DNA of 64,000 nucleotides from a virus (IMGVR_UViG_3300021408_000001:68905-132904); one strand, 5' to 3'; positions 4,271 to 33,483 are shown, numbered from the stretch's first letter. Made by a program: numbers and translations. The notes: generated by a model from the letters alone, not told the origin.

Positions 4271-4423
4271 ATGAATACACCAAACGAAAGCGCTTATGAC
4301 TTCTACTACGCACAAGCGATGATGGAAGGCGTGAATGCCAAAGAGGCAAGCGAGTACGCAATTCAGCGCGCCAGCAACCCAGGGCGTGACTTCTACAGCC
4401 ATATGTTGGCGCAGGCTCGTTAG
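4271..4423 (+). CDS. hypothetical protein (50 aa), first cassette gene
   Basis: AGGGGGAG RBS; TAG stop is the first base triplet of element 1. Confidence 0.65.
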   Translation: MNTPNESAYDFYYAQAMMEGVNAKEASEYAIQRASNPGRDFYSHMLAQAR

Positions 4424-4495
4424 TGATACTGAGACGTTAGGACTTAGGCCCTAACGTTGATTGTAATACTAACAATGGGAAAGGGAGCTAGTTAA

Positions 4496-4834
4496 ATGAA
4501 TAAGTTCGGAATCAAGGTCATCGTGGGTCTGTTCATCTTCGTGATCGGTTACGGTGCTAACGCACTGGATACCGCGAACGCGACGAACACCCCTGTGAGC
4601 AAGAGCGTCAACCTGGTGGCCAATACCGATAACCCTGACGTAGTGGTTACGTGGGGTACTGGTAACGAGGACGAGGATAATCTAGTGATTACGGTTGACG
4701 GCGCGGAAGTGCTTCGCACCCACGTTGACCAGCTCGCTAGTGGTAAGCGTCTGGTCGTGGTTGATGCCGATTGGTTCAACGGTTACGTGACCTGGTATGA
4801 CGCCAACGGTGCAGAGTTCACCAAGAGCCGATAG
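4496..4834 (+). CDS. secreted/membrane-anchored hypothetical protein
   Basis: Signal-peptide-like N-terminus; element plus GGGAAAGGGA RBS upstream. Confidence 0.75.
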   Translation: MNKFGIKVIVGLFIFVIGYGANALDTANATNTPVSKSVNLVANTDNPDVVVTWGTGNEDEDNLVITVDGAEVLRTHVDQLASGKRLVVVDADWFNGYVTWYDANGAEFTKSR

Positions 4835-4885
4835 CGGTTGCGGTTAGCCAACTACGGTTGGCTAACCAATTATCCTTATCGGATA

Positions 4886-4928
4886 TGGGATTCTAGAGAG
4901 TTACTTTCGTAACTCTCTGGGTTGACCA
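4886..4928 (+). repeat. second-type hairpin element (copy 1; copy 2 at 9792-9835)
   Basis: GGGA.TCTAG.GA(C)GTTAC-N4-GTAACTCTCT.GGTTGACC in both places, between a main element and the RBS. Confidence 0.75.
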
Positions 4929-4947
4929 ATGGGAAAGGGAAGAAACA

Positions 4948-5220
4948 ATGCGCAAGGGTGGGGATTCCCGCGGTTCGTCCGCTAGCCGCCGTGCTCGCAA
5001 AGTTTGGATGTTAAATCACTTTGGCAATGGGCTTAACGTCAATTGCGTTCATTGTGGTAAGGAACTTGATTACACCACAGTGGAGAGTGATCGAATCATT
5101 CCGGGTAACTTGGGTGGTTCTTATAGGCGAGACAATGTGCAACCCGCGTGCCGATGCTGCAACGCACGGCGCGCCGATGACATGAGCTGGACTTACACTC
5201 CAGTTATGGCAATGGCTTAG
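4948..5220 (+). CDS. small HNH endonuclease
   Basis: CxxC..ESDRIIPG..GGSYRRDNVQPACxxCN HNH/Zn-finger pattern. Confidence 0.8.
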   Translation: MRKGGDSRGSSASRRARKVWMLNHFGNGLNVNCVHCGKELDYTTVESDRIIPGNLGGSYRRDNVQPACRCCNARRADDMSWTYTPVMAMA

Positions 5221-5287
5221 CACTTACTGAGTCGGGGTAATGCAAATTACCCCGACAATTGTAAATACTAAGTTAGGGAGAGGGATT

Positions 5288-5488
5288 ATGGCTATCAAGC
5301 ATACGCAACGTGGCATGGGTGGTGGTAAGACTCATGGTGTTGTTAGTGAAGCGCACCAAGTGTTGCATCATCGCAAGCGTGAGACGACCGAGCGCATCAT
5401 TTGGGCTAAGCGCGTCCTTTACCGTCACAAGGTGATTGGTTGGGACGACTTGACCCCAATCGAGCAAATGGGACTGACCAAGCACTAG
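5288..5488 (+). CDS. hypothetical protein
   Basis: ATG after element plus RBS; TAG in next element. Confidence 0.75.
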   Translation: MAIKHTQRGMGGGKTHGVVSEAHQVLHHRKRETTERIIWAKRVLYRHKVIGWDDLTPIEQMGLTKH

Positions 5489-5553
5489 TGATACTGAGAG
5501 CTAACGACATCGTCGTTAGTTCAATTGCATTACTAGAGATAGGGGAAAGGGAT

Positions 5554-5862
5554 ATGAGTGAGTATCGCACAGACGGTGCGGGCGCGGAAGCGCTTGCATT
5601 GCAACTAGACGCGGACGAACGTTTGCAACCTGGTGATGCCGGTTACTGGCAGCATTGGGGAGCACGTACGTTTGACGTCAAGGCTGGTGACATCATCGCT
5701 ACTCTTGATAATGGCGTCATCGTTCTAGACGAAATCGCTAGTGCTCGTGACAACACTGTTCAAATGGTCTACACCACGGTTAGTGGTAAGACGTTCTCGC
5801 TTGGACATTTGTTCAAAGGATTTCAAGTGTTCCGTTCGGGAACGCATAACACGCTCGCCTAG
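5554..5862 (+). CDS. hypothetical protein
   Basis: ATG after element plus RBS; TAG in next element. Confidence 0.75.
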   Translation: MSEYRTDGAGAEALALQLDADERLQPGDAGYWQHWGARTFDVKAGDIIATLDNGVIVLDEIASARDNTVQMVYTTVSGKTFSLGHLFKGFQVFRSGTHNTLA

Positions 5863-5931
5863 TGGTACTGACCTAGTACTAGCAATAGTGCTAGGGATTG
5901 CATTACTAGACAATGGGAAAGGGAAGACAAC

Positions 5932-6078
5932 ATGCGCACCTACACCACTACCGATTCCAGTGGTAACAAGGTCCGAGTCATGGCCGATTCGCAGGCTGCC
6001 GCGGCCGGTTGGGCAGAAGTTGAGCGCAAGCTTGCCGCGATGCGTGCCATCGCCTACAACCTGCGCGTTTGGTTCTAG
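5932..6078 (+). CDS. hypothetical protein (48 aa)
   Basis: Fills exactly the space between RBS and next element. Confidence 0.7.
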   Translation: MRTYTTTDSSGNKVRVMADSQAAAAGWAEVERKLAAMRAIAYNLRVWF

Positions 6079-6144
6079 TCGTTACTGACCTGGCACTAGC
6101 AATAGTGCCAGGGATTGTAATTACTAGTAAATGGGAAAGGGATT

Positions 6145-6276
6145 ATGACTACTTTCAATTTCAACCATGTTCCGACCGGTCAGAGTGGCAAGGTCATGGC
6201 GCGTAACCACGTCGCCGCGGTCAAGATGGTCCGTGAGGCTTACGGACCTGGTGACGTTGAGATTCACGCGGTCTAG
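6145..6276 (+). CDS. hypothetical protein (43 aa)
   Basis: Fills exactly the space between RBS and next element. Confidence 0.7.
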   Translation: MTTFNFNHVPTGQSGKVMARNHVAAVKMVREAYGPGDVEIHAV

Positions 6277-6348
6277 TCGCTACTGAGAGGTTAGGACTTA
6301 GGTCCTAACCTCAATTGTAGTTACTGGTTAAGGGGAAAGGGATAGACA

Positions 6349-6738
6349 ATGCTGGACATTATGGGCAACGAATACGAGCAACTCCCGATGTTCATCAATC
6401 CCACTACCATCATCGATAAGACGATTGATGGTAGGTGGGATAGTATAGACCATGTCACAAGTGAAGATGCTTGGAATGGAAAGCTTCAGAATTCACTGCG
6501 TGGTGGACATACCGGCTCGGACTTCAATAATATCACTAAGTGGCAAGCGTTCGGACCAATCACGCTGACAGTTCATCACGACAACGTGATTATGGGTAAT
6601 GGTCATCACCGAGTCGCCATGAGCGCAAATCAGGGAATGCAATTGATTCCTTGCTTGTGGAGTCATACTTCCTTCGCGGAAGACGAGTACAAATCAAAGG
6701 AACGGGTACTAGGTTCCGAGGAAAGTGAGTATTACTAG
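6349..6738 (+). CDS. ParB/Srx-like domain protein
   Basis: GPI..IMGNGHHRVA motif; paralog of 17303..17653 (shared QLPMF). Confidence 0.6.
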   Translation: MLDIMGNEYEQLPMFINPTTIIDKTIDGRWDSIDHVTSEDAWNGKLQNSLRGGHTGSDFNNITKWQAFGPITLTVHHDNVIMGNGHHRVAMSANQGMQLIPCLWSHTSFAEDEYKSKERVLGSEESEYY

Positions 6739-6807
6739 CAACGGTTGACCACTGATTAGCAGTAGTCAGTGGGATTGCAGTTACTAGAACAGGGAAAGGG
6801 ATAGCCA

Positions 6808-7119
6808 ATGGCAAAGCTAACCGCTAATGGCAAGCACAAGGTTGCTAGCGTGAGCTATACGACCAAGCCGCGGACGGAAATGCCCAATGGTGGCAGTGAG
6901 GAGCACTACACAACGTTTGCGCTTAGGAGCGATGGTGCAGTGCTGGAAGCGCATACGAGCGTCTATCGTCATAAGAGCGATGGTGGCAAGTACCCGCATC
7001 GTATGGGTGGCAATTACACCATCGTTGGCACCTTGCGTACTGGCCTACCGATCACGGAAGAGACCTTGCGCAACTTGCGAGTAGTCAAGGCCTACTCAAA
7101 CAAGTACAACGAACGCTAG
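6808..7119 (+). CDS. hypothetical protein
   Basis: Element plus RBS; TAG in next element. Confidence 0.75.
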   Translation: MAKLTANGKHKVASVSYTTKPRTEMPNGGSEEHYTTFALRSDGAVLEAHTSVYRHKSDGGKYPHRMGGNYTIVGTLRTGLPITEETLRNLRVVKAYSNKYNER

Positions 7120-7469
7120 TAGTACTGAGAGAGCACAAGCTAGCTTGTGCTCTTGATTGCATTACTAGAACAGGGAAAGGGATAGCTAATGGGATGGTAT
7201 ACACTCATTAGGGTCGTTCAACGCACCGTTTGGAACTATGTTCTCTTCGATAGCGACAATCTCGTTGTCGCTAGTGCTTTGCGAGCGTCGTGGTTAGCAG
7301 TATGATCGCGCACAGTGTGTTTGAAATCATAGGCGGCGGCGTCTTGGGTGTTACAACCCTAGCGTTCTTTGTATGGGTCGCATGGTTTCTTTGGTTAGCT
7401 AGTTAACTCTGAGAGTGCACTAGGTTTCCCTAGTGTGCTCGATTGAGCTAATTAGAAGGGAAAGGGATT

Positions 7470-7667
7470 ATGGTAACACGTCGCAAGGATGGCACTGAGG
7501 TTAAGTCTGGTGACATCGTTGATGATTTCCGAGGCGCGCCCTGGGAATTCAAGCGTGCTGTTAGAGCACAAACTACCGCTAAGTCTGGCAAGGTGCTGGT
7601 TAGCGATGGGGCATGGGTGCAAGAGTTCTACGATTTAGTCTTTGACCTTACGGTCACGGATAGTTGA
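7470..7667 (+). CDS. hypothetical protein
   Basis: Element plus RBS upstream. Confidence 0.75.
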   Translation: MVTRRKDGTEVKSGDIVDDFRGAPWEFKRAVRAQTTAKSGKVLVSDGAWVQEFYDLVFDLTVTDS

Positions 7668-7736
7668 TTCTGAGAGTGCTTAGCGAAAGCTGAGTGCTCG
7701 ATTGAATTAACTGTTAAAGGGAAAGGGAAGGCGGCA

Positions 7737-8552
7737 ATGAGGAAGAAATTTGATTACAAATTTGAGTTTCGCCATTGTCCTCTTTGCCTTAGCGATGACA
7801 TAGAAGTTGTGTTTGGGCATGATTGCCCATATGACCCTAGTAAGCTTGATAACGGAGCTATGTTCCCTGGTGTCAATATTGATGCTAAGGAGCGTGGTAA
7901 CGGTAGTGGCAAGGGGTCGGGCGGTAATAGCCCACCTAAGGCATCTCCTAAGCAAATCGCATATGCGATAGCGCTAGGGCTACCAGAACACATTGCTAAC
8001 GCAATGACTGCCGCGAGTGCTAGGGATCATATTCCTAGGCTCTTGGAAGAGCGTAAGCGCAAGGGTGTTGATGCTCCTGTGAGTGGCGCTAGCCCTAAGC
8101 AGATTGACTTTATCACTAGTCTGCTTAGAGATAGGCCCGGGGCATGGGATGGTGACGTTAATACACTGTCTAGCAGTGATGCTAGTGCGCTTATCAAGCG
8201 CTTGCTCGCTACACCTAAGAGTCAAGCGCCTAAGGTGGCAACGGAAATCGTTACTGACGGTTTCTATGTGGATGACAGTGATGTCATTTACAAGGTGCAA
8301 CGCGCTGTGCATGGTAGCGGGAATCTTTATGCTAAGGTTCTCGATACCGACACTGGCGTGTTTGAATATGCACAAGGTGCTATTCGCACGCTTGGTACGA
8401 TGGTGTCTAAGGGTACTGCTCACAAGCTCACGCTTGAAAGAGCTAAGGCTCTTGGTCACCTTTACGGGCGTTGCATCATTTGCGGTAAGACGCTTACAGA
8501 CGAAACGTCAATCGCTAACGGCATTGGGCCGGTGTGTGCAAAGCGTTTCTAG
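7737..8552 (+). CDS. DUF6011-like Zn-finger protein with ASPKQI repeats
   Basis: C-terminal CIICGKTLTDETSIANGIGPVCA; two ASPKQI modules. Confidence 0.7.
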   Translation: MRKKFDYKFEFRHCPLCLSDDIEVVFGHDCPYDPSKLDNGAMFPGVNIDAKERGNGSGKGSGGNSPPKASPKQIAYAIALGLPEHIANAMTAASARDHIPRLLEERKRKGVDAPVSGASPKQIDFITSLLRDRPGAWDGDVNTLSSSDASALIKRLLATPKSQAPKVATEIVTDGFYVDDSDVIYKVQRAVHGSGNLYAKVLDTDTGVFEYAQGAIRTLGTMVSKGTAHKLTLERAKALGHLYGRCIICGKTLTDETSIANGIGPVCAKRF

Positions 8553-8621
8553 TTGATACTGCGGGGTAGCTAGTGATAGTTGCCCCAATTGAATTAACTA
8601 GTAAGGGAAAGGGAAGAGCAA

Positions 8622-8873
8622 ATGGCATTCAAGCGCCATATTTGGCCTATGCGTGCTAACGAAGTGCGTGAGGATGACTACCTAATCCTTTGGTTGGATT
8701 ACGCTTCAACGATGGTCATGCGTGTTGATGTTATCATTAGTCGTCGGCCGGGTGATTACAAGTTCAGTGGTGATATTCGTTGGAATTATCACGATGGTTC
8801 TAGTCGAGTGTTAAATGGTTGGTCGCCCTGGTATGAGCACACCCAGTGGATACAAGTTGCTCGTTATCAGTAG
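8622..8873 (+). CDS. hypothetical protein
   Basis: Element plus RBS; N-terminus resembles 14522 ORF. Confidence 0.75.
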   Translation: MAFKRHIWPMRANEVREDDYLILWLDYASTMVMRVDVIISRRPGDYKFSGDIRWNYHDGSSRVLNGWSPWYEHTQWIQVARYQ

Positions 8874-8940
8874 CTACTGAGGATAGACGATAAGTCGTCT
8901 ATCCAATTGTAGTTATTGGATTAGGGAAAGGGAAGAGCAA

Positions 8941-9183
8941 ATGGCTAAGGTCAATTCTAGGCTAAAGCCTAAGACTATCAAGGGTAGAGTGTTTACGTCA
9001 TTGGTGACGTTCTCTGATGACAACGAACACGTTGCACTTGAGGCTTACGACGATAACGGTCGTCGTCATTTCGTCAAGTTCACGCCAACTGAACTAGTCA
9101 AGCTACACGGTGTGCTAGAGACCGTTGCGCAACGCGGCTGGTTCAAGGAAATGTTGTCAAAGGAAACCAGCGATTCGGTTTAG
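8941..9183 (+). CDS. hypothetical protein
   Basis: Element plus RBS; TAG in next element. Confidence 0.75.
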   Translation: MAKVNSRLKPKTIKGRVFTSLVTFSDDNEHVALEAYDDNGRRHFVKFTPTELVKLHGVLETVAQRGWFKEMLSKETSDSV

Positions 9184-9249
9184 TGGTTCTGACCTAGCAC
9201 TATAGATAGTGCTAGGAATTGAATTACTAAATAGGGAAAGGGAAGAGCA

Positions 9250-9498
9250 ATGGGTTTCTTTGAGGGTAAGTTCAAGATCACGCATCATAAGCGTGATCGG
9301 GAAGTAAGCGTACGTATGGATTTGCGCACGCTGGAAGACCTTTATCACCAGCTCGTTCATGCTGAGATCAATTGGGAGCAGCAAGTACTCACCAATGGTG
9401 AGTACGTCAACGAATCCCGAGAGATTCTTGCTGAGGTTAAGAACTACCGCAAGGAGCTACGTGAGGCTTATGCCAAAGCTACTGGCCGCGAGGTTTAG
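9250..9498 (+). CDS. hypothetical protein
   Basis: Element plus RBS. Confidence 0.75.
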   Translation: MGFFEGKFKITHHKRDREVSVRMDLRTLEDLYHQLVHAEINWEQQVLTNGEYVNESREILAEVKNYRKELREAYAKATGREV

Positions 9499-9569
9499 TT
9501 AGCAACGGTTGACCTAGTGCTAGCGATAGCACTAGGGATTGTCGTTACTAATCAATGGGAAAGGGATTA

Positions 9570-9740
9570 ATGATGACTCAGTACCGTTGCCCGAATTGTG
9601 GGCACACTGAAAGTCAGTTCTTCGCCAACATCGAAGTTTGGCATGCATGCCCTAAGACAATGGGTCATGCTGCTGTGAGGCTTAAGGTCGTTAGCCCTGT
9701 CAAAGAGGCTAACCGAGTGCGTGACCTGTTGAAGTTGTAG
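9570..9740 (+). CDS. small Zn-ribbon-like protein
   Basis: CPNCGH..HACP; element plus RBS. Confidence 0.65.
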   Translation: MMTQYRCPNCGHTESQFFANIEVWHACPKTMGHAAVRLKVVSPVKEANRVRDLLKL

Positions 9741-9856
9741 TTGCTGAGAGCACAGGAGATCGCTCTCCTGTGCTCAATTGCAATATCAACATGGGAGTCT
9801 AGGGACGTTACGAAAGTAACTCTCTAGGTTGACCCTAAATGGGAAAGGGAATAACA

Positions 9857-9997
9857 ATGGATTGCTTCGATTATCCGCTTAGTGATGATGAAATCGACCG
9901 CGATGCATGGGATACCGACAACTACGATGGTGACGCTTTCTATGAGCGTCGTCCGTCCCAGCGTGGTAGTACTATCGACGCTGTTCTCGCTTCCTAG
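9857..9997 (+). CDS. small acidic protein (46 aa)
   Basis: RBS upstream; TAG in next element; Asp-rich. Confidence 0.65.
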   Translation: MDCFDYPLSDDEIDRDAWDTDNYDGDAFYERRPSQRGSTIDAVLAS

Positions 9998-10380
9998 TCG
10001 CTACTGAGGGCTAAGGACTACGGTCCTTAGTCCAATTGTAGTTACTAAGGTGAAGGGTAGAATGATGCTCACTAAGGAAAGCGGTTGCAAGCATTGTGGT
10101 AAGCAAATTGCCCGCAATGCTGATGGTGTATGGGTGACTATTATTATTCAAGACGCCGAGTGCGTATGGAATTTCGCGGATTTGGTACATGTGCCAGCCT
10201 ATGGCAATTGGAGCTAGCAACGATTGAGGGTAGCCAATAACTATATTGGCTACCCGATTGTCGTTACTAAATAGGGAAAGGGATTGCAATGGAAATCTTT
10301 AGTCTTGTGCTCGTTGAGGTTTCTCGTCCGCGTGGTGGTAGCAAGTGGGCGCGGTTCCTGCGCTCGTTGGTGCGCTAGTC

Positions 10381-10614
10381 ATGGATGATAACAAGCTTTG
10401 GGTTGACGCCTACCAGATTGCTTACATTGGTGGGAGCAATAAGCGAGCAATCGCTAATGCACTCATCAATTACACCAAGCAATTAGGTAGCAAGCATGTC
10501 GCGGTTCGTGCTATCGCTGGTCACCTACTGTACCTTTACGGGTACGATTTGGGTCCGGAGATCACGGACCTTAACAAGGTGCTTGCTAAGGCTGTTGAAC
10601 TTGGTATTGCCTAG
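10381..10614 (+). CDS. hypothetical protein
   Basis: ATG just after a short upstream ORF; TAG in next element. Confidence 0.65.
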   Translation: MDDNKLWVDAYQIAYIGGSNKRAIANALINYTKQLGSKHVAVRAIAGHLLYLYGYDLGPEITDLNKVLAKAVELGIA

Positions 10615-10686
10615 TGCAAGCTGAGAGCACAGGGGAGTGATCCCCTGTGCTCGATTGTTAGTACTAGACAGGGGAAGGGAAGAGCA

Positions 10687-11028: not shown

Positions 11029-11220
11029 ATGCGGTTTGAAGATCCTAGTTGGGCTGAAATACAGCGTGTCAGAGAGCGTGAGGCTGCTTATAGGGATAAG
11101 GCACTTCCTGTTGTAAGCAAGCTCGATACGACGCTTAGTAACTACCGCAAGGGTACGCTTACCTTTGGCGAGTTGCTCCTTAGCGTCAATAACTCTCTAC
11201 ACCAGCTAGATCAAATCTAG
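11029..11220 (+). CDS. hypothetical protein
   Basis: TAG in next element. Confidence 0.6.
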   Translation: MRFEDPSWAEIQRVREREAAYRDKALPVVSKLDTTLSNYRKGTLTFGELLLSVNNSLHQLDQI

Positions 11221-11289
11221 TCGTTACTGACCTAGCACTAGAGATAGTGCTAGGGACTGTAATTACTGGTAAGGGAAAGGGAGAAAGCA

Positions 11290-11544: not shown

Positions 11545-11780
11545 TGCCTACTGACGAATTTGGCGAGCCTCTGGAATGCCTTAACGGTCCGGAGGATTGC
11601 GTAGGCCCTGTGGACTATCGGCTAGCTCCTGGTGGTAAGGCGTGGCCACGTTGTGAGTACCACGCTAATAAGCGCTGGGACGACTACGACGATGAGAATA
11701 GCGTTGAGCGCTATGCGGATAGCGACGCTGTTCCCGAGTGGTTTGATCCGTCCTACGCTGGTGAAAGTTGGGATGATTAG
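11544..11780 (+). CDS. acidic Cys/His-containing hypothetical protein
   Basis: TAATG coupling; C..C..C..H; WFDPSYAGESWDD tail. Confidence 0.75.
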   Translation: MPTDEFGEPLECLNGPEDCVGPVDYRLAPGGKAWPRCEYHANKRWDDYDDENSVERYADSDAVPEWFDPSYAGESWDD

Positions 11781-11849
11781 TCGTTACTGAGAGCGTAGGG
11801 CTTAGGTCCTACGCTTGATTGTAGTTACTAAATGGGAAAGGGAAGAGCA

Positions 11850-12035: not shown

Positions 12036-12153
12036 CAAGTAGCTGAGAGCACAGGACGTTAGATTTACTAACCACTGAGATACTGTTTGGTGGTAGACAA
12101 TGTCCTGTGCTCAATTGCTAGTTGTTAGTGCAAATTGGGAAAGGGAGAAGCAA

Positions 12154-12600
12154 ATGAATGTGTTCAAGCTGATTAATGCAATCAACGATGTCGTTGCATT
12201 CAAGCCTGGGTACAAGCTGAGTGCCATTGATTGGAGTCGTCGTCACGCTGGGTCAATTCTTGTGCGAGTTACGTACAGGACCTTTGACTACAGCGCGGCA
12301 TACGCTCCCAACTACGGTAACTTTACCGAGTTGGAAATTTCGTGGTACTTCTGCATTGTTCCCGAGCACTACGACAACGAGCGTGGTTTCTGGCGAGGGT
12401 TCTTCGATAATCTCATGAGACTAGAGACTCATGAGAACCGTGAGGCTTTCCGTATCTTCAATCCTGATACGGATAAGTGGGAGGGGCCATTTAACCCCCA
12501 TGAGCCGAGTGGGCAGAAGAGCTTTGGCAGCATCGCTGAGGATATCCAGTTCGGCGATCTTGTCATCAACCCGGAAGACGTTGAGGTTCTGTTCGACTAG
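12154..12600 (+). CDS. hypothetical protein
   Basis: Element plus RBS; TAG in next element. Confidence 0.8.
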   Translation: MNVFKLINAINDVVAFKPGYKLSAIDWSRRHAGSILVRVTYRTFDYSAAYAPNYGNFTELEISWYFCIVPEHYDNERGFWRGFFDNLMRLETHENREAFRIFNPDTDKWEGPFNPHEPSGQKSFGSIAEDIQFGDLVINPEDVEVLFD

Positions 12601-12671
12601 TGCTAGCTGAGAGTAGCCAACAGTGTTGGCTACTCGATTGTTAGTATTGGTACGGGGAAAGGGAGAAAGCA

Positions 12672-13124
12672 ATGAGACAAGATTTCCAAGTGCTAGGTAA
12701 TTTGTATATCCCCAATGTCGATATCAGTCTTAGGTACCCCTTGTTTGAGGGGCCGCATTGGGGTCATCGTGTTCCTAGACAAGTGTTGAGTATCGCTAAT
12801 CGTGGTCCTAGCAGTGCTGCGAATCATTGGCATCACGATCAACCATTAGATATTGGTTTGATCCTGTGGTCAAACATGTTTCCAACAGAAATTAGGTTGT
12901 CGGATGGCAGAATTGTTACTGCTAAGCCATTTGATGTGGTGTTGCTGGACAATGCCAACGTTCACCATAGGACGCCAGAGTATGTCGTTAAGTTGGCGCA
13001 AAGAGGCGCTAGCATTAATCGTTATCTCATTCGTGGGATCTACGATGGCTATCCGTCCGATGATGTTATCAGTGAGTGGAAGAATCAACTAGCACGTAAG
13101 AAGACGCTTGTCAGTGCAAGCTGA
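12672..13124 (+). CDS. possible 2OG-Fe(II)/cupin-like oxygenase
   Basis: WHHD..VHHRTP..RYLIR spacing fits an HxD..H..R double-stranded beta-helix motif. Confidence 0.45.
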   Translation: MRQDFQVLGNLYIPNVDISLRYPLFEGPHWGHRVPRQVLSIANRGPSSAANHWHHDQPLDIGLILWSNMFPTEIRLSDGRIVTAKPFDVVLLDNANVHHRTPEYVVKLAQRGASINRYLIRGIYDGYPSDDVISEWKNQLARKKTLVSAS

Positions 13125-13186
13125 GGGTAAGCGGGCGGTTGCTCGCTTATCCAATTGTTAGTACTGAAAGGGAAAGGGAGAAAGCA

Positions 13187-13504
13187 ATGGGTGCACTACT
13201 ACTCATCGGCACAGTGGTCGTCATGACTGCAGTGCTACTAATCGTCGGCGCCGTATTGGCATCAATCGCAAGGGAAGACAATGGAAATCATCGCAGCAAT
13301 CGTCATCGTGGTGCTGATTCTGGCAGCAACACCCACAAGCAAGCCTCGCGAGAAGACGAATATCGTAGGGCAGGCAACGGGTCAAATGACGCCGGAGCAG
13401 CGCAGGTTGCGTTACGAGATATTGAGAGCATCATCAACGGCCGTCGCACATGGGTCAACACGTCGGACCAAGTGAGGGAAGTTCTTAGGTCGGTCGATTA
13501 CTAA
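13187..13504 (+). CDS. membrane-anchored hypothetical protein
   Basis: N-terminal TM segment; element plus RBS; could be two overlapping shorter ORFs. Confidence 0.55.
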   Translation: MGALLLIGTVVVMTAVLLIVGAVLASIAREDNGNHRSNRHRGADSGSNTHKQASREDEYRRAGNGSNDAGAAQVALRDIESIINGRRTWVNTSDQVREVLRSVDY

Positions 13505-16055: not shown

Positions 16056-16121
16056 TAGCTGCTGAGGATAGACGACAATGTCGTCTATCCAATTGCAATT
16101 ACTAAAAAAGGGAAAGGGATT

Positions 16122-24433: not shown

Positions 24434-24498
24434 TAATTGAGAATGCACAGTAGGCCTGTGCATTCAATTGTTATTACTGATTGAAGGGAAAGGGAAGC

Positions 24499-25109: not shown

Positions 25110-25342
25110 AGACATATGTCATTAACTATATTCTAGAAAGTGTGCCTGAGCGAGTGGTTGAGGCTGAGTTTATGGAATATAGTAGGGATGGGTTCACGTT
25201 CTTTAATAATGGAGTGGAGCCTGGTCCTTTCTTGTTTATTCATAAGTCGGCTATCAAATCGCTAGAGCGCGAGTAGTACTAGCTGAGGGTACACAGGACT
25301 CCTGTATACCCAATTGTTAATACTGCCGGGAAGGGGAATAGC

Positions 25343-25582
25343 ATGACCAAAGCACAAGACGAACGTCACTATGACAAATTCCAACGAACCATGGCTAGGT
25401 TCTATGCCTATGGTCGTATGGATGAGGCTATGATGGGAGATAGCCTAGACGGTATCAATGTCGTTGATAGGTTTGTAGAATTCTTCCTAAATAGCACGAC
25501 ACCATCAGTAAGACTTGCGTGGATTATGTATCACGCGACACTAGTTGAACTACAGGAAGCTGGATACACGTCTCATACGTAG
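25343..25582 (+). CDS. hypothetical protein
   Basis: Element plus RBS; TAG in next element. Confidence 0.7.
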   Translation: MTKAQDERHYDKFQRTMARFYAYGRMDEAMMGDSLDGINVVDRFVEFFLNSTTPSVRLAWIMYHATLVELQEAGYTSHT

Positions 25583-25874
25583 TGATAGCTAAGAGCTAGC
25601 AATCTTGAGATTGCTAGCTCGACTGTTAGCACTGCACGATGTCAGGGCTAGCCGGGCAGGTTGGAATCCAGCCTGACCACGATAGAATCCAGTACAGCCA
25701 GTACAACCCGGGAATAACAGACCATAGGTTGTGGTTGTACGGGTTAGGCGCTACACTAGTTGGTGCCTGAGAGGGTACGGAATTCAACCCCGCACTCTCA
25801 ACTGGCGCAAGCTAGCGTCAAGAGAAGTAATACCAACCAACAACGAAACCCAAAAGGGAAGGGAATAACACAAA

Positions 25875-26147: not shown

Positions 26148-26358
26148 CCAAAGGGTGTAGCTACTGCGGGGATAGGGACTTAGGTCCCTATCCCCAATTG
26201 TAGTTAAAGCTAGGATGCTAAGAGACTCAAGCTTATTAGAAGTCTTTGAGAGCATTTCTTACAGTCTGGGTCCCTAATACGGATGTCAGGCCATCCTTGT
26301 AACTACATAATATAAGGGTATATTTATAGGTAGCTAGAGTGAGCAAGCCTATATAAAT

Positions 26359-26391
26359 TAGGAGGGGATTAGCTTAGCTAATCCCCTCCTA
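26359..26391. terminator. perfect 15-bp hairpin, possible terminator
   Basis: TAGGAGGGGATTAGC-TTA-GCTAATCCCCTCCTA; no clear U-tract. Confidence 0.45.
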
Positions 26392-26413
26392 TTCGCATAC
26401 AGAAAAGGGAAAG

Positions 26414-26788
26414 ATGGATACGATTACAGTGTATCGGGTACTCGAAGTCGCTAAAGAATTAGTGGCTGAGAATCCCGATGCTATTAATCCTCGTGTTGCT
26501 ATGGATATGGCTTGTGCTTATGTTCGTAGGGATGATATCGAAAACCCTGCTAACGCAGCGCCCAACTGTTTCGGTGGAGCTATTCTCCTCCGACTCGGCC
26601 TAGGTTTACCAAAAGAGGGACATTTAGTAGATAAGAGTCCCGATGTAGACAGGTTATCAGACAATGCTATGAAGCTGCTTATGTATATGCAGTGGCATGC
26701 TGATACTAGCTTAGTCTGGTCAGAAGCCTTGCCTAAGGCGGTTGCTGAGTATAACCGGAACCATGAGGATGAGAGAATCAGCCTTTGA
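26414..26788 (+). CDS. hypothetical protein, paralog A1
   Basis: A.EIV..NP...NP..C.Y..C.GG..L.RL.L..P.E shared with next two ORFs. Confidence 0.8.
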   Translation: MDTITVYRVLEVAKELVAENPDAINPRVAMDMACAYVRRDDIENPANAAPNCFGGAILLRLGLGLPKEGHLVDKSPDVDRLSDNAMKLLMYMQWHADTSLVWSEALPKAVAEYNRNHEDERISL

Positions 26789-27156
26789 CTGACACACTGA
26801 TCACCATGGAACGTGTCAGGGAAGTAGCACAAGAGATTGTTGCTGAAACCCCTGACGCGACCAATCCTCGTGAGCATGGGGTTACAGGTACGTGCCTTTA
26901 CACTAGGCTTGATGGTGTTAATAATCCACCTAATGCTGCACCTAGGTGTCTTGGTGGTGAGGTTCTAGTTCGTCTAGGACTTAGACTTCCAGAGGAGGAT
27001 CAGCTAGTCAGTACCTCTCTAGATAAAGATAAGTTAGATATGTTCGCTATGGACTATCTATGGAGTTTACAGAATATTGCTGACCAGTCCTTTGGGCCAT
27101 GGTCAGATGTACTGGAAGAACTAGAGACAAGAATTGCAAGGGAGTCTGATGGTTGA
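26785..27156 (+). CDS. hypothetical protein, paralog A2
   Basis: Same motifs; overlapping start/stop. Confidence 0.8.
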   Translation: MTDTLITMERVREVAQEIVAETPDATNPREHGVTGTCLYTRLDGVNNPPNAAPRCLGGEVLVRLGLRLPEEDQLVSTSLDKDKLDMFAMDYLWSLQNIADQSFGPWSDVLEELETRIARESDG

Positions 27157-27541
27157 CAAGATCAAGTACAACCAGGTGTTAGGGTTAGCGCAAGAGATTG
27201 TTAATGCTAATCCTAACATGGTCAATCCACAGGGCCTTAATGGTGAGTGCGTTTATAGCAAGCTTCCTGGGTTCGATGACACCATCAATGTCGCTAATCG
27301 ATGCATCGGTGGTGAAATCCTGTCTCGTCTAGATCTCAGTATTCCACATGAGGGAACTACAGTTTATGAATCCCCAGATAGGTATAAACTAACCACTAGA
27401 GCAATGCAATTTCTAGCTGAACTACAGAGAATGGCGGACTATAGAGATCCGTCAACTCGTACGCCCCGACCTTGGGGTAAGGCGTTAGAGATAGCAATCT
27501 CTGCCTTCGCCGAATATGATGCACATCTAGAGGACGAGTAG
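27149..27541 (+). CDS. hypothetical protein, paralog A3
   Basis: Same motifs; TAG in next element. Confidence 0.8.
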   Translation: MVDKIKYNQVLGLAQEIVNANPNMVNPQGLNGECVYSKLPGFDDTINVANRCIGGEILSRLDLSIPHEGTTVYESPDRYKLTTRAMQFLAELQRMADYRDPSTRTPRPWGKALEIAISAFAEYDAHLEDE

Positions 27542-28266
27542 TAATTGAGGGCCGATCAGTCTATGATCGGCCCAATTGTTATTACTGGCGAAAAGAGAGG
27601 AGTTTTAGTGTTAGAGAACTTTGTAACATACGTCCTTAAGCTTCATAGAGACAACCCGGAGTGGAGGGAGGGTCAGGCGTTGTTTAATGCTCTGCAAGAA
27701 GAGCATCCTTCGCTTGCTGCTAGTGTTCGTGGTAGTCTTAATGATCCCTATTACGATGACAGTCGGATTGAAGCGTTCTGGGCCTATGTGGAGACGAATT
27801 GGAACCGGTAGTAGATAAGCGCCTAGCTATTGCTGAGAGCGAAGCAGTACTCATCGGCGCTATAGTTGATGAGACTAAAGAGGCACTTCGTACTCTCAAG
27901 GAAGATATCGAAGTACTAATTAACGGCTATAATTTGGACATTGCAAGGCTGACTTCGTTGCTTGCCGATACCGTAGCTGCTGCTGAGTACTACATGAAAA
28001 TTGTCATGAGGGATGATCCATCTTATCATGACATCTCAGATGGAATAATTCATGAACAAAGCATTGATAGGGTTAAGGATATTTTAGGTGTCTGAATGGA
28101 AACGCCACAACATTACTATGAAGCTCTGTTCTCGATGTGATAGTGTTGAGTTTATGTCAGAGCGAGGATGGCACTATTGGCGATGTGAGGAGTGTGGCGG
28201 TCGCATTCAAAAGACTGTTGAGGATAAAGAACTAATCAAGAAGTCGCAAAAGGGAAAGGGAAGAAA

Positions 28267-28893
28267 ATGACACTTGCAATTGAAGACGTTCTAGGTGCGG
28301 TGATTGGCTACACTCATGAGGAGCTTGCCGATGCACTGATTAGCACCATCAAGTCTTATGGCTTTAGTGTAGTTGCCAACACCGATCGGTTGAGGGAACT
28401 GTCACCTGATGACCAGATGGGCCATAAGGTAGTTGTTCCTGCTGGTGTGCCAGGAGAAATCTACGACCGGGAATTGGGCGGGCCTGGTGGGTTGACTTAT
28501 CACTCTGATAAGATTGTTGTTACTCGCGATGATCTTAGTTCTTACGATAGGGTTCGGGTTCTTAGTCATGAGCTAGCTCATGTTGTTCTTCACGGTAGGT
28601 TGAATGAGGGTGATCTAACCACCCATGAGAAGGTACTACTTCTTATGGGTGGTGCAGAAGTCATCACCATTAAGGGCGAGATTGAGGCAGAGCTTTCTTC
28701 GTACATGATCCTTACGTTGTATGGCATGGCTGATGGAGGTATCTCTGATGATTATATCCAGCATTACTTTGGCATGCTGCACCCTTTCTTTGCCATGAAG
28801 ATTAGGGAGGATGTCAGTAAGGTTGGTGCCAAATTCATCTTTGACATCATGCCTACAATCAACGGGTATCTTCTGGATCAGAAGAGCTATTAA
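28267..28893 (+). CDS. ImmA/IrrE-like HExxH metallopeptidase
   Basis: GGLTY..IVV..VLSHELAHVVLH..EIEAE. Confidence 0.7.
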   Translation: MTLAIEDVLGAVIGYTHEELADALISTIKSYGFSVVANTDRLRELSPDDQMGHKVVVPAGVPGEIYDRELGGPGGLTYHSDKIVVTRDDLSSYDRVRVLSHELAHVVLHGRLNEGDLTTHEKVLLLMGGAEVITIKGEIEAELSSYMILTLYGMADGGISDDYIQHYFGMLHPFFAMKIREDVSKVGAKFIFDIMPTINGYLLDQKSY

Positions 28894-29783
28894 GTAGCTG
28901 AGAGCCAACGAGTCTAACTCGTTGGCTCGATTGTTATTTGGAAGCAAAAGGGAAAGGGATAGGTAATGAGTAGATCATGTGCTTGTACTCATTCCGTAAG
29001 CGACCACAGGACGAAGCGAGAGGATGACTTTCCGGCTGGCTCCTGTAGGCTCTGCGCGTGTAGGGCCTACGATCGTGCCACTGACAGGCCGTTCGTCTCC
29101 CCCTGGCATTGACTAAAGGAAAGGGACAATGACAAAGTACGAATCTATTAAGTCTGTTTATGGTGCGTATGGTTCAACCTCTAATCATGAGCTAAGCAAG
29201 CTGCTCGAAGATGGTTGGGAGCCATTCGCTGTAACCGGCGACACTGGGTCTACGCCTGTTGTTTGGCTTAGGTTGCCTGCTAAAGAGCAGGGATCAATTA
29301 ATTTGTGATCCATAGAGCCGATTGCGATAAGCCCCATCGTTGCCCAGAATGCTGGACTATTCCTAATATCATTTGGGAAAAGCACGGTAGTGCAAAGTGG
29401 TGGTACATCTACACTTGTAGAAGTGGTCATAGATTCACCCGACTGCTGGGTAGAGATGGCAATTGGAAGATCCATTGGTACAGATTCAAGATTTGGTGGA
29501 AGCATCGAAATGAGTGACGATTACGGAACACACATTGAGGATGATGGTAGTCCTCAAATCATCGTAGTAGATGGAGAAGATCAGGGTCTATGGGTTCGTG
29601 TTGGTCCTATTTTCACTGGCGATGATGACAACCCTATTGATGCCGCGCCTGGTGTTTGGATTGATTACCAGGACACATACATGGGGTCGAAGCTAGAAGG
29701 CCCAGTGCTGATCCCTATTGATGTTTGGGATCATCTAGATACTTGGGTTAGAGCTAGAGCCGCTAAGTTTGATAAGGGTGGTT

Positions 29784-30257
29784 ATGCGCCCCGCAGTGAT
29801 ATTTGATCGCGACGGTACGCTAGCGTCTGTTAAGCACGTTGCACCAACAACTAAGGACAAGGGTGCATGGGCACAGTTCAACGCTGCTCTACCCTTTGAT
29901 GCACCGGTGCCGGTAGTTGCTGGACTGTTGCGAGCTATTCGACCAGACGTCACTAGAATTATGACATCTGGTCGTATGGCTGGTGACCGTGTTGGCGATG
30001 AGCATCGCTGGTATCAAATGCGCAACTGGCTAATCAAGCACGATTTACCCATTGACATATTGCTGATGCGTCAAGGTGGTGATACCCGCCTTGACTCCAT
30101 CGTAAAGGAGGAGATGTATAGACAAATCTCTAAGCGTTACGATGTGCGATATGTTGTAGATGATAGACCTGCGGTAGTACAAATGTGGCGCTCGCTAGGA
30201 CTGCCAGTGCTAGCGGTTACCGATCCAGGTATTCTTCCGCCTATCGCAATGATGTGA
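29784..30257 (+). CDS. HAD phosphatase, polynucleotide kinase-phosphatase (PseT C-terminal) type
   Basis: IFDRDGTLA, TSGR, LLMR..GDTRLDSIVKEE, VDDRPAVVQMWRSLGL. Confidence 0.85.
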   Translation: MRPAVIFDRDGTLASVKHVAPTTKDKGAWAQFNAALPFDAPVPVVAGLLRAIRPDVTRIMTSGRMAGDRVGDEHRWYQMRNWLIKHDLPIDILLMRQGGDTRLDSIVKEEMYRQISKRYDVRYVVDDRPAVVQMWRSLGLPVLAVTDPGILPPIAMM

Positions 30258-30267
30258 AGAGGGATAA

Positions 30268-30522
30268 GTGGCTGCTGCATCACTAAAGAATATTGAAGGA
30301 TGGTACCAGAGTGGTATTGTCCGAGGTGCTACCCATATGTTGGTAGTTACTGATACTTGGACAATGGTAGACACTCCGATATTTGTTCTTCGATGGGATG
30401 ATGTCAACGAAGTCATTGCTAAGTATCTCAAGATGGAACATACCAAGATCCAAGAGGTTTATAATCTAAGCATGTTGTGGGCAGAGCAGAATACACCGCG
30501 TGAGAAGGTGTGGAATATTTAG
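30268..30522 (+). CDS. hypothetical protein
   Basis: GATHMLVVTD..EVYNL; TAG in next element. Confidence 0.7.
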   Translation: MAAASLKNIEGWYQSGIVRGATHMLVVTDTWTMVDTPIFVLRWDDVNEVIAKYLKMEHTKIQEVYNLSMLWAEQNTPREKVWNI

Positions 30523-30548
30523 TACTAGCTGAGGGTAGTGGGTAGCTC

Positions 30549-30677
30549 AGTCCTCTAGGACGTAAGGGCCTAGACGATGTGAGCATTGATAGTGGAGCTG
30601 CGTAGGACGGGAAACCTTGACGCAGAGTAAGACGGACGGCCTATAATGGAGCGAGTCTTACGGTCTATCGATGTTCG
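30549..30677 (+). ncRNA. candidate structured small RNA nested in the loop of a repeat element
   Basis: 129 nt enclosed by GGGTAGTGGGTAGCTC/GGGCTACCCACTGCTC; four internal helices. Confidence 0.55.
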
Positions 30678-30727
30678 GGGCTACCCACTGCTCAATTGTT
30701 AGTATTAACCAAGGGAAAGGGAAGTAA

Positions 30728-30949
30728 ATGGCAAGACTAGTCATCATGATTGATGTTAAGGGCATTGACCCTACGATCATGGATCCACAGGTGCTAGCGG
30801 AAGATATCGTTATGGATGGTCCAGAGTATTCTGACGGTGTTAGATTCACCATTGCTGATAATGCTGAATGGATCGCAGAAAACGATGATCCTCTAGCGTG
30901 GCGTAGATCAATGCGGAAGCTGAGTGATAAACTGTTTCCGGACGACTAG
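30728..30949 (+). CDS. hypothetical protein
   Basis: Element plus RBS; TAG in next element. Confidence 0.75.
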   Translation: MARLVIMIDVKGIDPTIMDPQVLAEDIVMDGPEYSDGVRFTIADNAEWIAENDDPLAWRRSMRKLSDKLFPDD

Positions 30950-31017
30950 TAATTGAGAGTGCACAGGAGGCCTGTGCATTCGATTGTTATTAGTACACAA
31001 GGGAAAGGGAAGCAACA

Positions 31018-31434
31018 ATGAGTGAATTTAGGCCTATTGGTACCGTTGAGACTTTTCGTGGTCGACAGTATGCCCTAGATGCAGAGATGCACAGTGAGCC
31101 ATTGGCCACCTGGGTTAGTGTTAATCCTGGTGTGTACACACTGTACAGTAATGGACTTAGCACTTTCTGGATGATGAAGGGTCAGATCGTTACCAACTAT
31201 ATGAATCGTATGGGAGACGGTATGTTTTCCGTAGGTGGCCCAATGACTGACGATAGTCGTCCTGAGGTTGTGTTCCCATCTAGAGTCTTTGGGATCGATG
31301 AGTGGGATGACTTTGTCAACCGGGACGTAACCACCAGGGAAGGTCACCCAGAGCAGCGAGTTCGCATCCTGATTGATCAGGCAGCTATTGATGGATACGC
31401 TGCAATCGATAAGCTTAAGGAGTCAGATGGCTGA
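31018..31434 (+). CDS. hypothetical protein
   Basis: Element plus RBS. Confidence 0.75.
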   Translation: MSEFRPIGTVETFRGRQYALDAEMHSEPLATWVSVNPGVYTLYSNGLSTFWMMKGQIVTNYMNRMGDGMFSVGGPMTDDSRPEVVFPSRVFGIDEWDDFVNRDVTTREGHPEQRVRILIDQAAIDGYAAIDKLKESDG

Positions 31435-31896
31435 GCAGCAGAAACTTATTTACACCATTGATGGTGAGCCGTACGTGGGTACTTTGCATAGCTATGCTAA
31501 TGCCCTAAAGAACGGATTCTACACAGGAGTAGAGATCAGTGATGGTGTTTGGATCGTTGAGTATGGTCACATGCGATTCATTGAGCCTACAGAACAGGCA
31601 TCACAAGGTGATGATTATCTCATTCGAGAGCTGACATTGCCTAACGGTGAGTCGGCTAGGTATAGGGTAGACCTACGTGGCTAGAAATGTAGCTATCGTT
31701 TTTAGACTAGCGGAAGATGTTACCCCAGAAATCTTCTCTGCTAAGGTGTTTCATACCTTGGTAGCAAATGGTGTTCTTCGAGAATATGAAGGACTAGAAG
31801 AGCTACATAGCGGTTATAAATGGACAATCAACCCTCATCAGGTTGAGGAGATTATGACCGCTGTCGATACCTTCATGACATCGGTGAGAGGTAAGG

Positions 31897-32424
31897 ATGA
31901 CTGATCATACGAAGTGGGAAGATATTAAGGCAGATAGAACCAAGCCGGGATACGTAGTTTGGACTGGCAAGAACGCTGAGGAAGTTGAGGCGTTCGCTAC
32001 TAATGCTAATTTTGGCTTTGTCATTGGTTCCTATAGGACCAATAGACGGCCGCCATTTCACAAGCTAATTGCTAGAATTGCCGCCAAGCTCGAAATTTTC
32101 TCTCTTGGTGGTGAAGATAAGCGACTTCTTGAAATCTTTCCGGATCGTAAGGAATCCCGAGAGGAAATTGAGAAGGAAACCGAAAAGATCATTAGCGTAA
32201 CTGGTAAGCTAAACGCTGCGTACAGTCGCATTGAATTTGTTGATACAAAGATGATGCGGAAGATTCGTGAGCTATTCAATGAGGCTGATGAGGGTGATTA
32301 TGTACCCTGGCACTGGACACTCGCTAGTCCTGGTGACAGAATCTACCATGATGGTACGGTAGAGAAGCCTGCCATGAGTAGAATTCGCACGAACCTAGAA
32401 GAAAGACGAGGTTCAGAAACCTAG
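31897..32424 (+). CDS. hypothetical protein
   Basis: Overlap-coupled; 175 aa. Confidence 0.7.
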   Translation: MTDHTKWEDIKADRTKPGYVVWTGKNAEEVEAFATNANFGFVIGSYRTNRRPPFHKLIARIAAKLEIFSLGGEDKRLLEIFPDRKESREEIEKETEKIISVTGKLNAAYSRIEFVDTKMMRKIRELFNEADEGDYVPWHWTLASPGDRIYHDGTVEKPAMSRIRTNLEERRGSET

Positions 32425-33483
32425 AGTGTGGTTACTAGCTATATTAATTGGCGGTGTAGCAATGGCCGTAATGGTTTTTATGGTGGTACACTCCATTGTA
32501 AAAAGGTAATGATTGAGGGTGCACAGGGGAACTTGTGCATCCAATTGTCATTATCAATAGGGAAAGGGAAAGTATGGAGGAATTTAAGATAGGGGACATC
32601 GTTGAGGTAGATGGTGAAACTGTCTATCATATGCACGAAGATACACTCCGAGGAACTATCGAAAAGATTTCCCCGGGGCTATTTGATATTCCTCTTTACC
32701 TAGTTCAATTTAGGGATTTCACTTTTTGGCTCTATGCTCATCATTTGACTGAGGTTAATTAGCATGAGTGATCTTGACGTACAAGTTGAGGGTCTAGCTA
32801 GACTCAATTCTAATTGGGATAGTCATGGTGGCACACCACCTACCCATGAAGCTATTAAAACTCTATGTAATATAGTCTTTGTGCCACTGCCCAATGGTGG
32901 TATTCAGGTTGAGATAGATGATGGTGATGTCTACGTGGAGACTGAGATTGCCCCGGATGGGAATATAGTCTACACCATGAAGTTTAGCAAACACAAAGGA
33001 AAGTGAGGTGATAACAAAATGAAGTTAAAGAAAGGTGATCGTGTCGAGCTTCTAGACAAGTTCAGGAACGCCCCATTCCAGGGACATACTGGAACCGTGC
33101 TAAGGCGCGGCAAAATTGGTCGAATGTGGCATGTCAAGTTAGATATGCCTGGCTTAATGGGGCAGACAATGGCTAGGGTTCCAACTAGTGGCCTACAGAA
33201 GATCCAGCAGGCCTAGCGAATTCAGGTGCCCCGGAGCGACGCATGGCACCCCCTACGTTGCCTCCTAAGGCTCTCCCAGAGGTCGGAAGGTCCGAGAGTG
33301 CCGGGAACCCTGATTCGGCCGCATTGGCCCCTAGAATGCCCCAGAATCGATTTGGTGGACGGAGCGTGAGATCGAACTACGGAACGTGTGATTCTAGTGC
33401 TAGCTAAGAGCTAACAAGTTCAAAACAAAAGGACAACCTTGTTGGCTCGATTGTTACTACTAGATATAAGGAAAGGGGTAGCG

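Follow-up and report, generated by a model that had tools for sequence, protein, structure and literature searches.

Substrates of Escherichia coli RNase III span about two helical turns. An internal loop can limit the enzyme to cutting one phosphodiester bond, so that the product keeps a hairpin that protects its 3' end, and good reactivity calls for a helix of no less than 11 bp from the cut to the tetraloop (PMC1540722). A second kind of signal, the start-associated sequence (SAS) and its extended form (ESAS), consists of a conserved purine-rich motif at the position of the ribosome site that often stands behind an inverted repeat or a conserved stretch and whose function is unexplained (PMC3203893, PMC7302621). 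Here, we describe the structure, folding strand, covariation, dimensions, and position of an element that combines features of both and that occurs in 54 copies within the last 64 kb of the viral record IMGVR_UViG_3300021408_000001 (positions 68905-132904 of a 132.9-kb genome estimated to be 94% complete). This whole stretch of 64,000 nt is referred to as the window, and coordinates refer to it unless the genome is named. The element is a two-tier hairpin (10-bp lower stem, asymmetric internal loop with three nucleotides in the 5' strand and four in the 3' strand, 10-12-bp upper stem, and 3-4-nt apical loop) that is followed by a purine block, GGGAAAGGGA. It is a strongly selected cis-acting RNA module at the cistron junctions of a long polycistronic early (accessory-gene) transcript in this uncultured phage.

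The closest architectural match to the element is provided by the RNase III signals of phage T7, with their asymmetric internal loop; an earlier note that had been made on this DNA from its sequence alone mentions neither this match nor the link of the hairpin to stop codon and GGGAAAGGGA block. The T7 early sites R0.3, R0.5, and R1.1 were taken from the T7 record and folded for comparison. In the R0.3 and R0.5 folds, the lower stem has 8 bp and takes in upstream stop codons, the internal loop (CUCA/UAUGAU) counts 4 nt in its 5' strand and 5 nt in its 3' strand, the upper stem has 9-10 bp, and the apical loop has 4-5 nt. In both phages a two-tier hairpin lies between co-oriented early genes just upstream of the next ribosome site. 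Its lower stem is weak and may take in the stop codon of the preceding gene, its upper stem measures about one turn and is capped by a small apical loop, and its internal loop has one more nucleotide in the 3' strand than in the 5' strand, with GAUU within both 3' strands. The two systems differ in copy number (54 here, ~10 in T7), in the loop (3/4 with UGA/RAUU here, 4/5 with CUCA/UAUGAU in T7), and in the fusion of the present hairpin to an invariant GGGAAAGGGA block; cleavage of the present element is a prediction.

The GGGAAAGGGA block itself answers to the description of the SAS and ESAS motifs of Cluster K mycobacteriophages and Cluster EF Microbacterium phages: it is a purine motif a few nucleotides before the ATG that occurs in one orientation among non-structural genes, although with ~55 copies on the + strand it is far more numerous than SAS (10-19 copies). 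The Cluster EF motif GGGAAAGGACCCC and GGGAAAGGGA have their first 8 bases in common. The terminase of the Microbacterium phage Hager is among the best matches to the terminase of the present phage (~37% identity; GC content 47% here compared with 64%). Nine GGGAAAGGACCCC copies stand before start codons in Hager (27108-40564), each behind a promoter-like stretch (TAGCGAAA ... TAGAGT/TATAGT) and not behind a hairpin, and the covariance model of the element (R1, see below) finds no copy in Hager. For the ESAS repeats, the authors of the Cluster K study saw little support for RNA pairing and favoured DNA-binding proteins (PMC3203893), whereas all 21 pairs of the present element covary.

A further parallel is offered by phage SP82: the RNase III of its host Bacillus subtilis cuts its early mRNA, and the phage provides one of the strong, purine-rich ribosome sites that stabilise the 5' ends of RNA (PMC4838370, PMC7509114, PMC11805744). 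The intergenic regions of the SP82 relative SPO1 were folded and contain terminators, promoters, and small hairpins but no two-tier element. In work by Hue et al. (1995), the SP82 stabiliser is reported to adjoin the cleavage site.

Identification of the Hairpin Elements

A structural script run over the genome returned 50 candidates on the + strand and one on the - strand, and 48 copies were aligned to give covariance model R1. The model recovers 53 full-length copies, all on the + strand and all between positions 4419 and 36328 (E values 1e-17 to 4e-7), to which a 54th copy with a 129-nt insert is added (table 1). On the - strand of the genome R1 finds partial inner-stem echoes only, and it finds zero copies in the remaining 69 kb of the genome and in 430 kb of unrelated viral loci. 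A loose version of the script applied to both strands of 1.3 Mb of other viral and metagenome DNA produced only 12 weak chance look-alikes, and pattern scans of viral and metagenome contigs gave single chance matches that were all rejected by R1 and the structural script. The element was also not found in relatives recognized by their portal proteins (29-49% identity, very different GC content). In Rfam searches the gathering score was reached by tRNAs only, and relaxed searches with the elements and with the 129-nt insert returned noise.

The degenerate remnant listed in table 1 has lost its 5' half, and element copies can therefore degenerate. A second hairpin type was observed in two copies (4892-4921 and 9799-9827); it consists of a 12-13-bp stem (CUAGAGAGUUAC..GUAACUCUCUGG) followed by GUUGACC, and each copy is located between a canonical element and its GGGAAAGGGA block.

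Secondary Structure and Folding Strand

Covariation was measured among the paralogous copies of one genome. Pairing reaches 94.5% of the cells in the model-based alignment but only 63.1 +/- 1.0 after column shuffling (0/500). Each of the 21 pairs has changed on both sides, and sliding the partner by 1-3 columns reduces pairing to 26-48%. The proposal of the earlier note that the outer stems change in concert is borne out by these data, the four stem pairs that it quoted are present where quoted, and the alternation that it had seen in the closing pair appears in the counts (C-G 41, U-G 11, U-A 1).

The same note had placed the centre of conservation in the UGA/RAUU internal loop, in agreement with an information content per position of 1.68 bits for the internal loop, 0.78 bits for the outer stem, and 0.55 bits for the inner stem. 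Every copy has the same 3/4 asymmetry in this loop, with the longer strand on the 3' side. In a census of 48 copies, the 5' side is U in 48/48, G in 48/48, and A in 45/48, and the 3' side is a purine (A in 26, G in 22) followed by A in 48/48, U in 46/48, and U in 48/48. The few loop variants that had been listed are all present: UGC in the copies that start at 4827, 8548, 14233, and 26153, UAA at 25578, 33393, and 36270, and GACU at 11216, 17026, 25578, and 36270. That the internal loop is the most conserved part is as expected of a recognition or cleavage site.

The two stems differ in stability. The upper hairpin reaches -17.0 +/- 2.7 kcal/mol (GC 0.55), whereas the lower duplex reaches -7.6 +/- 2.1 kcal/mol (GC 0.36) and is rich in wobble pairs. 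The length of the upper stem is most often 11 bp (26 copies), with 14 copies at 10 bp and 7 at 12 bp, so that the internal loop indeed lies about one helical turn from the apical loop, as had been suggested.

Two censuses were used to count wobble pairs. The first (48 copies) scored G-T as a pair during selection, whereas in the second (44 copies) the selection was based on the loop motifs, the Watson-Crick pairs of the inner stem, and the downstream purine block, with wobbles uncounted. The outer stem of the 44-copy census contains 321 Watson-Crick pairs, 80 G-U, 16 A-C, and 23 other appositions, compared with 212, 80, 28, and 120, respectively, in column shuffles. Relative to the shuffles, G-U is neither enriched nor depleted and the other mismatches are purged about five-fold, and G-U is therefore tolerated as a pair. 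The inner stem of the 48-copy census displays 21 G-U and 1 A-C, and the inner-stem positions that were unused in selecting the 44 copies give a G-U to A-C ratio of 8:1. Overall, the count amounts to 101:17 on the + strand when the outer stem of the 44-copy census is combined with the inner stem of the 48-copy census, in the selection of which wobbles were counted (binomial p = 3.6e-7 when compared with the expectation from composition; p = 5e-16 for an expectation of 1:1). This is the comparison that the earlier note had put forward as a check, and the strand asymmetry is present. The folding strand is therefore the + strand, almost certainly in the form of RNA. RNA is the simplest reading because the elements are oriented in the sense of the genes, the wobble pairs are asymmetric, and the hairpin is placed between a stop codon and a ribosome site, and the original suggestion of selection on the folded + strand thus holds.

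Position between Stop Codon and Start Codon

The 5' arm holds the stop codon of the upstream open reading frame (ORF; the longest one in each case) in ~45 of the 54 copies, and in 29 copies this stop is the conserved TAG at model positions 3-5. TAG makes up 58% of the stop codons in the array compared with ~20% elsewhere. The earlier note is to be corrected in one respect: part of the outer-stem conservation (TAG...CUA) stems from this arrangement, since the stop codon and its complement lie there.

The start codon follows the hairpin at a distance of 12-25 nt. The purine block in between is located 0-4 nt past the end of the model, 2-6 nt past the stem, and 1-9 nt ahead of the ATG. When up to one mismatch is allowed, GGGAAAGGGA occurs ~59 times in the genome, 55 times on the + strand and nearly always within the array, and the other genes of the phage carry ordinary GGAGG-type ribosome sites. 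The block is also less paired than its surroundings (mean pairing probability 0.37 compared with 0.52-0.55 in the flanks).

A backup in-frame stop codon is found 0-1 codons past the first stop in 22 of 50 copies, and in only two copies does the frame remain open for more than ~30 codons and run into the region of the downstream gene. A read-through or polyprotein device based on UAG and an amber-suppressor tRNA was rejected on the grounds of these second stops, which look like a protection against read-through and not like a use of it. The phage carries a tRNA gene with a CUA anticodon at genome positions 1201-1275 (amber suppressor; assigned to Pyl by ARAGORN). The UGA of the internal loop is an in-frame stop in only 2-3 copies, where it ends the ORF, and is never found in a read-through context.

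Possible Functions of the Element

The reading that we favour, with a confidence just short of even, is that the elements are T7-type RNase III processing and insulation signals on the early mRNA that are joined to a strong and invariant ribosome site; which enzyme acts, that it cuts, and that the products gain stability are parts that we infer. Host RNase III would bind the ~22 bp of coaxial helix, and, as in the early sites of T7, the internal loop would allow a cut in a single strand only, within or next to RAUU on the 3' side. The weak lower stem would then melt, the upstream cistron would retain the strong upper hairpin as a block to 3' exonucleases, and the downstream cistron would begin with a short unstructured purine leader to which a ribosome could bind at once and so shield the new 5' end. 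Several dimensions of the element are consistent with this proposal. The 10-bp lower stem and the 10-12-bp upper stem add up to about two helical turns, as in RNase III substrates, and the upper stem (mode 11, range 10-12) agrees with the at least ~11 bp required between loop or cut and apical loop (PMC1540722). An asymmetric 3/4 internal loop that could hold a single scissile bond is present, and the elements are intercistronic throughout and lie in a co-oriented polycistronic unit. The split in stem strength fits a single-cut site because the products must separate. The plan shared with the T7 sites, the low pairing of the purine block, and the stabilisation of 5' ends by strong ribosome sites speak for this reading as well. 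Searches of the phage for RNase III, dsRBD, L7Ae, and Nop gave no family match and bulk Pfam scans revealed no obvious hairpin-binding protein; a host enzyme is favoured on account of this lack of a recognizable RNA-binding partner in the phage.

The copy with the 129-nt insert looks like a processing stalk, and its insert, which matches no Rfam family, may be a small RNA released through stalk processing. The minimum free energy (MFE) of this copy is -86.3 kcal/mol (z score -7.1).

Several observations weigh against RNase III. The enzyme needs no particular loop sequence, and the near-invariance of UGA/RAUU over 54 diverged copies exceeds what an RNase III model requires. R1 with filters off scores no T7 site, so that sequence homology is absent and the likeness is architectural only, and the element was found in no relative that was searched. 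Furthermore, the upper-stem pair that adjoins the loop is G-C in 44 of 53 copies, and catalysis by E. coli RNase III is suppressed by a G-C pair beside the scissile bond (PMC1540722); this pair would thus be unfavourable if the cut adjoined it and if the host enzyme followed the same rule.

The excess of loop conservation is the central argument for the main rival, a loop-specific factor, which we regard as unlikely but as deserving serious weight. The UGA/RAUU loop on a helix of fixed length would be the docking site of a sequence-specific RNA-binding protein or a dedicated endonuclease, and, at the same level of doubt, such a factor from the host or among the phage orphans would make one regulon of ~54 translational units, for instance through a post-transcriptional switch of the early genes, off or on, in which ribosomes are blocked or recruited at the adjoining GGGAAAGGGA. 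The loop keeps its 1.68 bits per position between stems that are fully diverged, a constraint above the known need of RNase III, and the 2-6 nt between hairpin and ribosome block would place a bound protein at the mRNA exit side of the ribosome. The loop variants look coordinated (UGC with AAUU in 4/4, UAA with GAYU in 3/3) but are too few for statistics, and the partner could be among the 94 of 103 array ORFs that belong to no known family, although Pfam searches found no RNA-binding or endoribonuclease family in the phage and the T7 sites likewise keep their loop sequence among themselves without a dedicated protein. Less credible is a composite early-gene address label, in which hairpin and GGGAAAGGGA together would be read by a dedicated factor other than RNase III that recognizes the UGA/RAUU loop, and it is similarly questionable that such a factor (a phage orphan or an unusual host protein) would jointly process, time, or shut off the ~54 units with their ~100 mostly orphan genes. 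A passive insulator that is never cut appears improbable. It would block 3' exonucleases after random decay, prevent the ribosome site from pairing with upstream coding sequence, and aid restart, as a stem that has the stop codon at its foot and the ribosome block 2-6 nt past its end would bring stop and restart together in space. The low pairing of the purine block and the backup stops directly after the first stop or one codon on (22/50), which indicate that termination is under selection, agree with such a role, but a plain hairpin would serve equally well and the invariant internal loop and the fixed 10-12-bp upper stem would remain unexplained.

The other readings are considered far less probable. 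A boundary of DNA cassettes, at which small genes would be shuffled through recombination at attC-like sites or at homology patches such as the promoter-stem-loops of T4-type phages, is very improbable despite its likeness to integrons: each small, mostly orphan gene unit has one structured element whose fold is better conserved than its sequence, the succession of outer and inner stem around an unpaired centre, with a variable tip (one of 129 nt), resembles a folded attC, and the genes between the elements are unrelated apart from 4 paralog pairs. However, no tyrosine recombinase, and thus no integrase, was found in the genome (PF00589; control positive in 14/14 genomes), the R-box consensus RYYYAAC/GTTRRRY is absent from the alignment, there is no excess of sigma-70-like promoters, and the tight register with stop codon and ribosome site points to RNA. 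The wobbles lie on the coding strand and would be A-C on the other strand (101:17), whereas attC folds on the bottom strand. A kink-turn (k-turn) or a kinked loop like that of the selenocysteine insertion sequence (SECIS), bound by a protein of the L7Ae family, is scarcely credible. The earlier note had suggested such a core, and 5' CUGA opposite GAU in the 3' strand allows a drawing with G-A, A-G, and U-U pairs like that of box C/D k-turns; tandem sheared purine pairs with a U-U pair may form in the loop. A k-turn core is contradicted by several features: no 3-nt bulge can be drawn, the flanking pairs covary, the single additional base is a U that lies distal to the GA, and the position of the essential 1b guanine is A in 26/48 and G in 22/48. 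In addition, searches of the phage for L7Ae and Pfam Nop, run with positive controls, were negative, and the element matches none of the Rfam families. A SECIS-type core fails likewise: in most copies the UGA of the loop falls outside the reading frame, and it terminates where it is in frame. Equally hard to believe is a role in transcription, be it as an intrinsic terminator or attenuator that leaks or as a promoter that a phage RNA polymerase would use. A terminator scan flags many upper stems because the downstream RAUUGUURNU is moderately T-rich, but there is no true U-tract and the tail RAUUGNNNUUACUA pairs with the 5' arm, with covariation. The series AATTG..TTACTA..GGGA bears a distant resemblance to T3/T7-type promoters, but the ACTA-to-GGGA spacing varies and sigma-70-like sites are not in excess; a search of the phage for a single-subunit T7-type RNA polymerase, made without a positive control, found none. 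A trans- or cis-acting ribozyme was dropped as a candidate: no known ribozyme was found, and CUGANGA is present in a subset only, with no GAAA strand after it.

To our knowledge, 54 copies in 32 kb place this array among the densest arrays of a single structured RNA in a phage, and it is unusual in its copy number, its invariant loop, and its link to SAS-like blocks. The copies have diverged except at functional features, and the array is in effect a natural mutagenesis experiment in which loop identity, the 3/4 asymmetry, the 11-bp upper stem, the weak wobble-rich lower stem, and the register with stop codon and ribosome site are the features shown to matter. If the elements are RNase III sites, a large phage splits one transcript into ~50 independently stable and translatable messages, and the elements would supply synthetic operons with ready insulators. 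Should a specific factor read them instead, the array would constitute a new post-transcriptional regulon and might account for the SAS/ESAS repeats of actinobacteriophages, and if hairpin and purine block form one address label, a first mechanistic handle on those repeats would be at hand.

Genomic Context of the Array

Table 1. Positions of the hairpin elements and associated features in the window
Feature	Position	Strand	R1 score (bits)	Remarks
Whole array	4271-36345	+		~100 small co-oriented ORFs, 54 hairpin and ribosome-site junctions
First array gene	4271-4423	+		
Element	4419-4474	+	39.6	
Element	4827-4884	+	39.7	loop UGC/AAUU, atypical outer stem
Element	5216-5273	+	50.9	
Element	5484-5538	+	48.1	
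Element	5858-5911	+	38.4	
Element	6074-6129	+	59.9	folded
Element	6272-6329	+	63.5	
Element	6734-6789	+	45.9	
Element	7115-7170	+	52.3	
Element	7398-7457	+	52.7	
Element	7659-7716	+	54.4	
Element	8548-8603	+	48.2	loop UGC/AAUU
Element	8866-8921	+	62.8	
Element	9179-9233	+	41.9	
Element	9498-9553	+	48.6	
Element	9733-9792	+	57.9	
Element	9993-10050	+	59.0	
Element	10213-10272	+	57.3	
Element	10610-10669	+	61.3	
Element	11216-11271	+	55.2	3' loop GACU
Element	11776-11833	+	60.2	
Degenerate remnant	12060-12136	+		3' half (..CUC AAUU GCUAGUUGUUAG) before GGGAAAGGGA block, 5' half decayed
Element	12596-12652	+	65.0	
Element	13110-13169	+	53.8	loop UGA is stop codon of upstream gene
Element	13500-13557	+	60.6	folded
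Element	13740-13796	+	64.5	
Element	14233-14291	+	62.0	loop UGC/AAUU
Element	14919-14975	+	60.4	
Element	15340-15397	+	66.4	
Element	16051-16107	+	69.2	
Element	16309-16366	+	70.1	top score; MFE -28.3 kcal/mol, z -7.2; folded
Purine block GGGAAAGGGA (example)	16368-16377	+		
Element	17026-17083	+	60.1	3' loop GACU
Element	17646-17702	+	57.7	
Element	18190-18245	+	54.3	
Element	18582-18637	+	59.5	
Element	19221-19277	+	40.7	3' loop AAAU
Element	19839-19895	+	63.8	
Element	20292-20349	+	62.1	
Element	20851-20907	+	62.5	
Element	21176-21232	+	53.7	
Element	21603-21662	+	56.6	
Element	22416-22472	+	60.7	
Element	22688-22744	+	60.0	
Element	23738-23794	+	62.1	
Element	24426-24482	+	61.5	
Element	25272-25328	+	61.3	
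Element	25578-25637	+	34.5	loop UAA/GACU
Element	26153-26212	+	50.8	loop UGC/AAUU; last before non-coding break, no ribosome block after it
Non-coding break	26213-26413			200 nt, after element at 26153
Element	27534-27590	+	56.6	
Element	28887-28945	+	45.6	
Element	30519-30709	+		normal outer stem, UGA/AAUU loop, 16-bp inner stem, 129-nt branched insert as apical loop
Element	30942-30998	+	59.1	
Element	32502-32559	+	54.2	
Element	33393-33465	+	43.4	loop UAA/GAUU, enlarged apical loop; folded
Element	36270-36328	+	39.9	loop UAA/GACU, last of the array; folded

The half of the genome outside the window encodes a portal, a terminase, a tape measure, a UDG-PolA fusion, and a primase-helicase, and the virus is therefore a large tailed phage. 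No isolated phage matches the genome at the nucleotide level, and the best protein matches of the phage are 31-39% identical. A search of bacterial genomes with a glycosyltransferase-like gene, used for host inference, returned no match. Nearly all transcription in the window is carried by the + strand.

Bulk Pfam scans of 210 ORFs identified RNA-repair enzymes and homing-type nucleases and assigned a family to 9 of 103 array ORFs. The genes between the elements are mutually unrelated; only 4 paralog pairs exist among ~108 array ORFs, and an origin of the repeats through gene duplication was ruled out on account of these few pairs. A tandem trio of paralogous genes (37-51% identity) is located at 26414-27541, and the other pair consists of 17303-17653 and 6349-6738 (30% identity), with no further array paralogs detected.

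The array is preceded at 3600-4270 by ~550 nt of structured non-coding DNA ahead of its first gene, with short repeats that contain CGATATCCCA / CGAATCCCC around 3600-3700. A PNK kinase is encoded at 29769-30257, and a PNKP phosphatase domain is also present within the array. Downstream of the array, 15 tRNA genes are found at 38.4-57.8 kb of the window, where RNA-repair genes are present as well; the tRNA genes stand among small ORFs, with an RNA-repair set of RtcB, RlaP, and RNA ligase (38465-57753 and 58302-60412). The tRNA genes and the RNA-repair set, to which the kinase and the phosphatase domain also belong, make up a second, tRNA-based punctuation of a long transcript. Two features stand out in the non-coding break within the array, a promoter-like TTGTAA..TATATT and, at 26359-26391, a palindromic hairpin with a perfect 15-bp stem ahead of AAAAGGGAAAG ATG, and the break may be the start of a second transcription unit.

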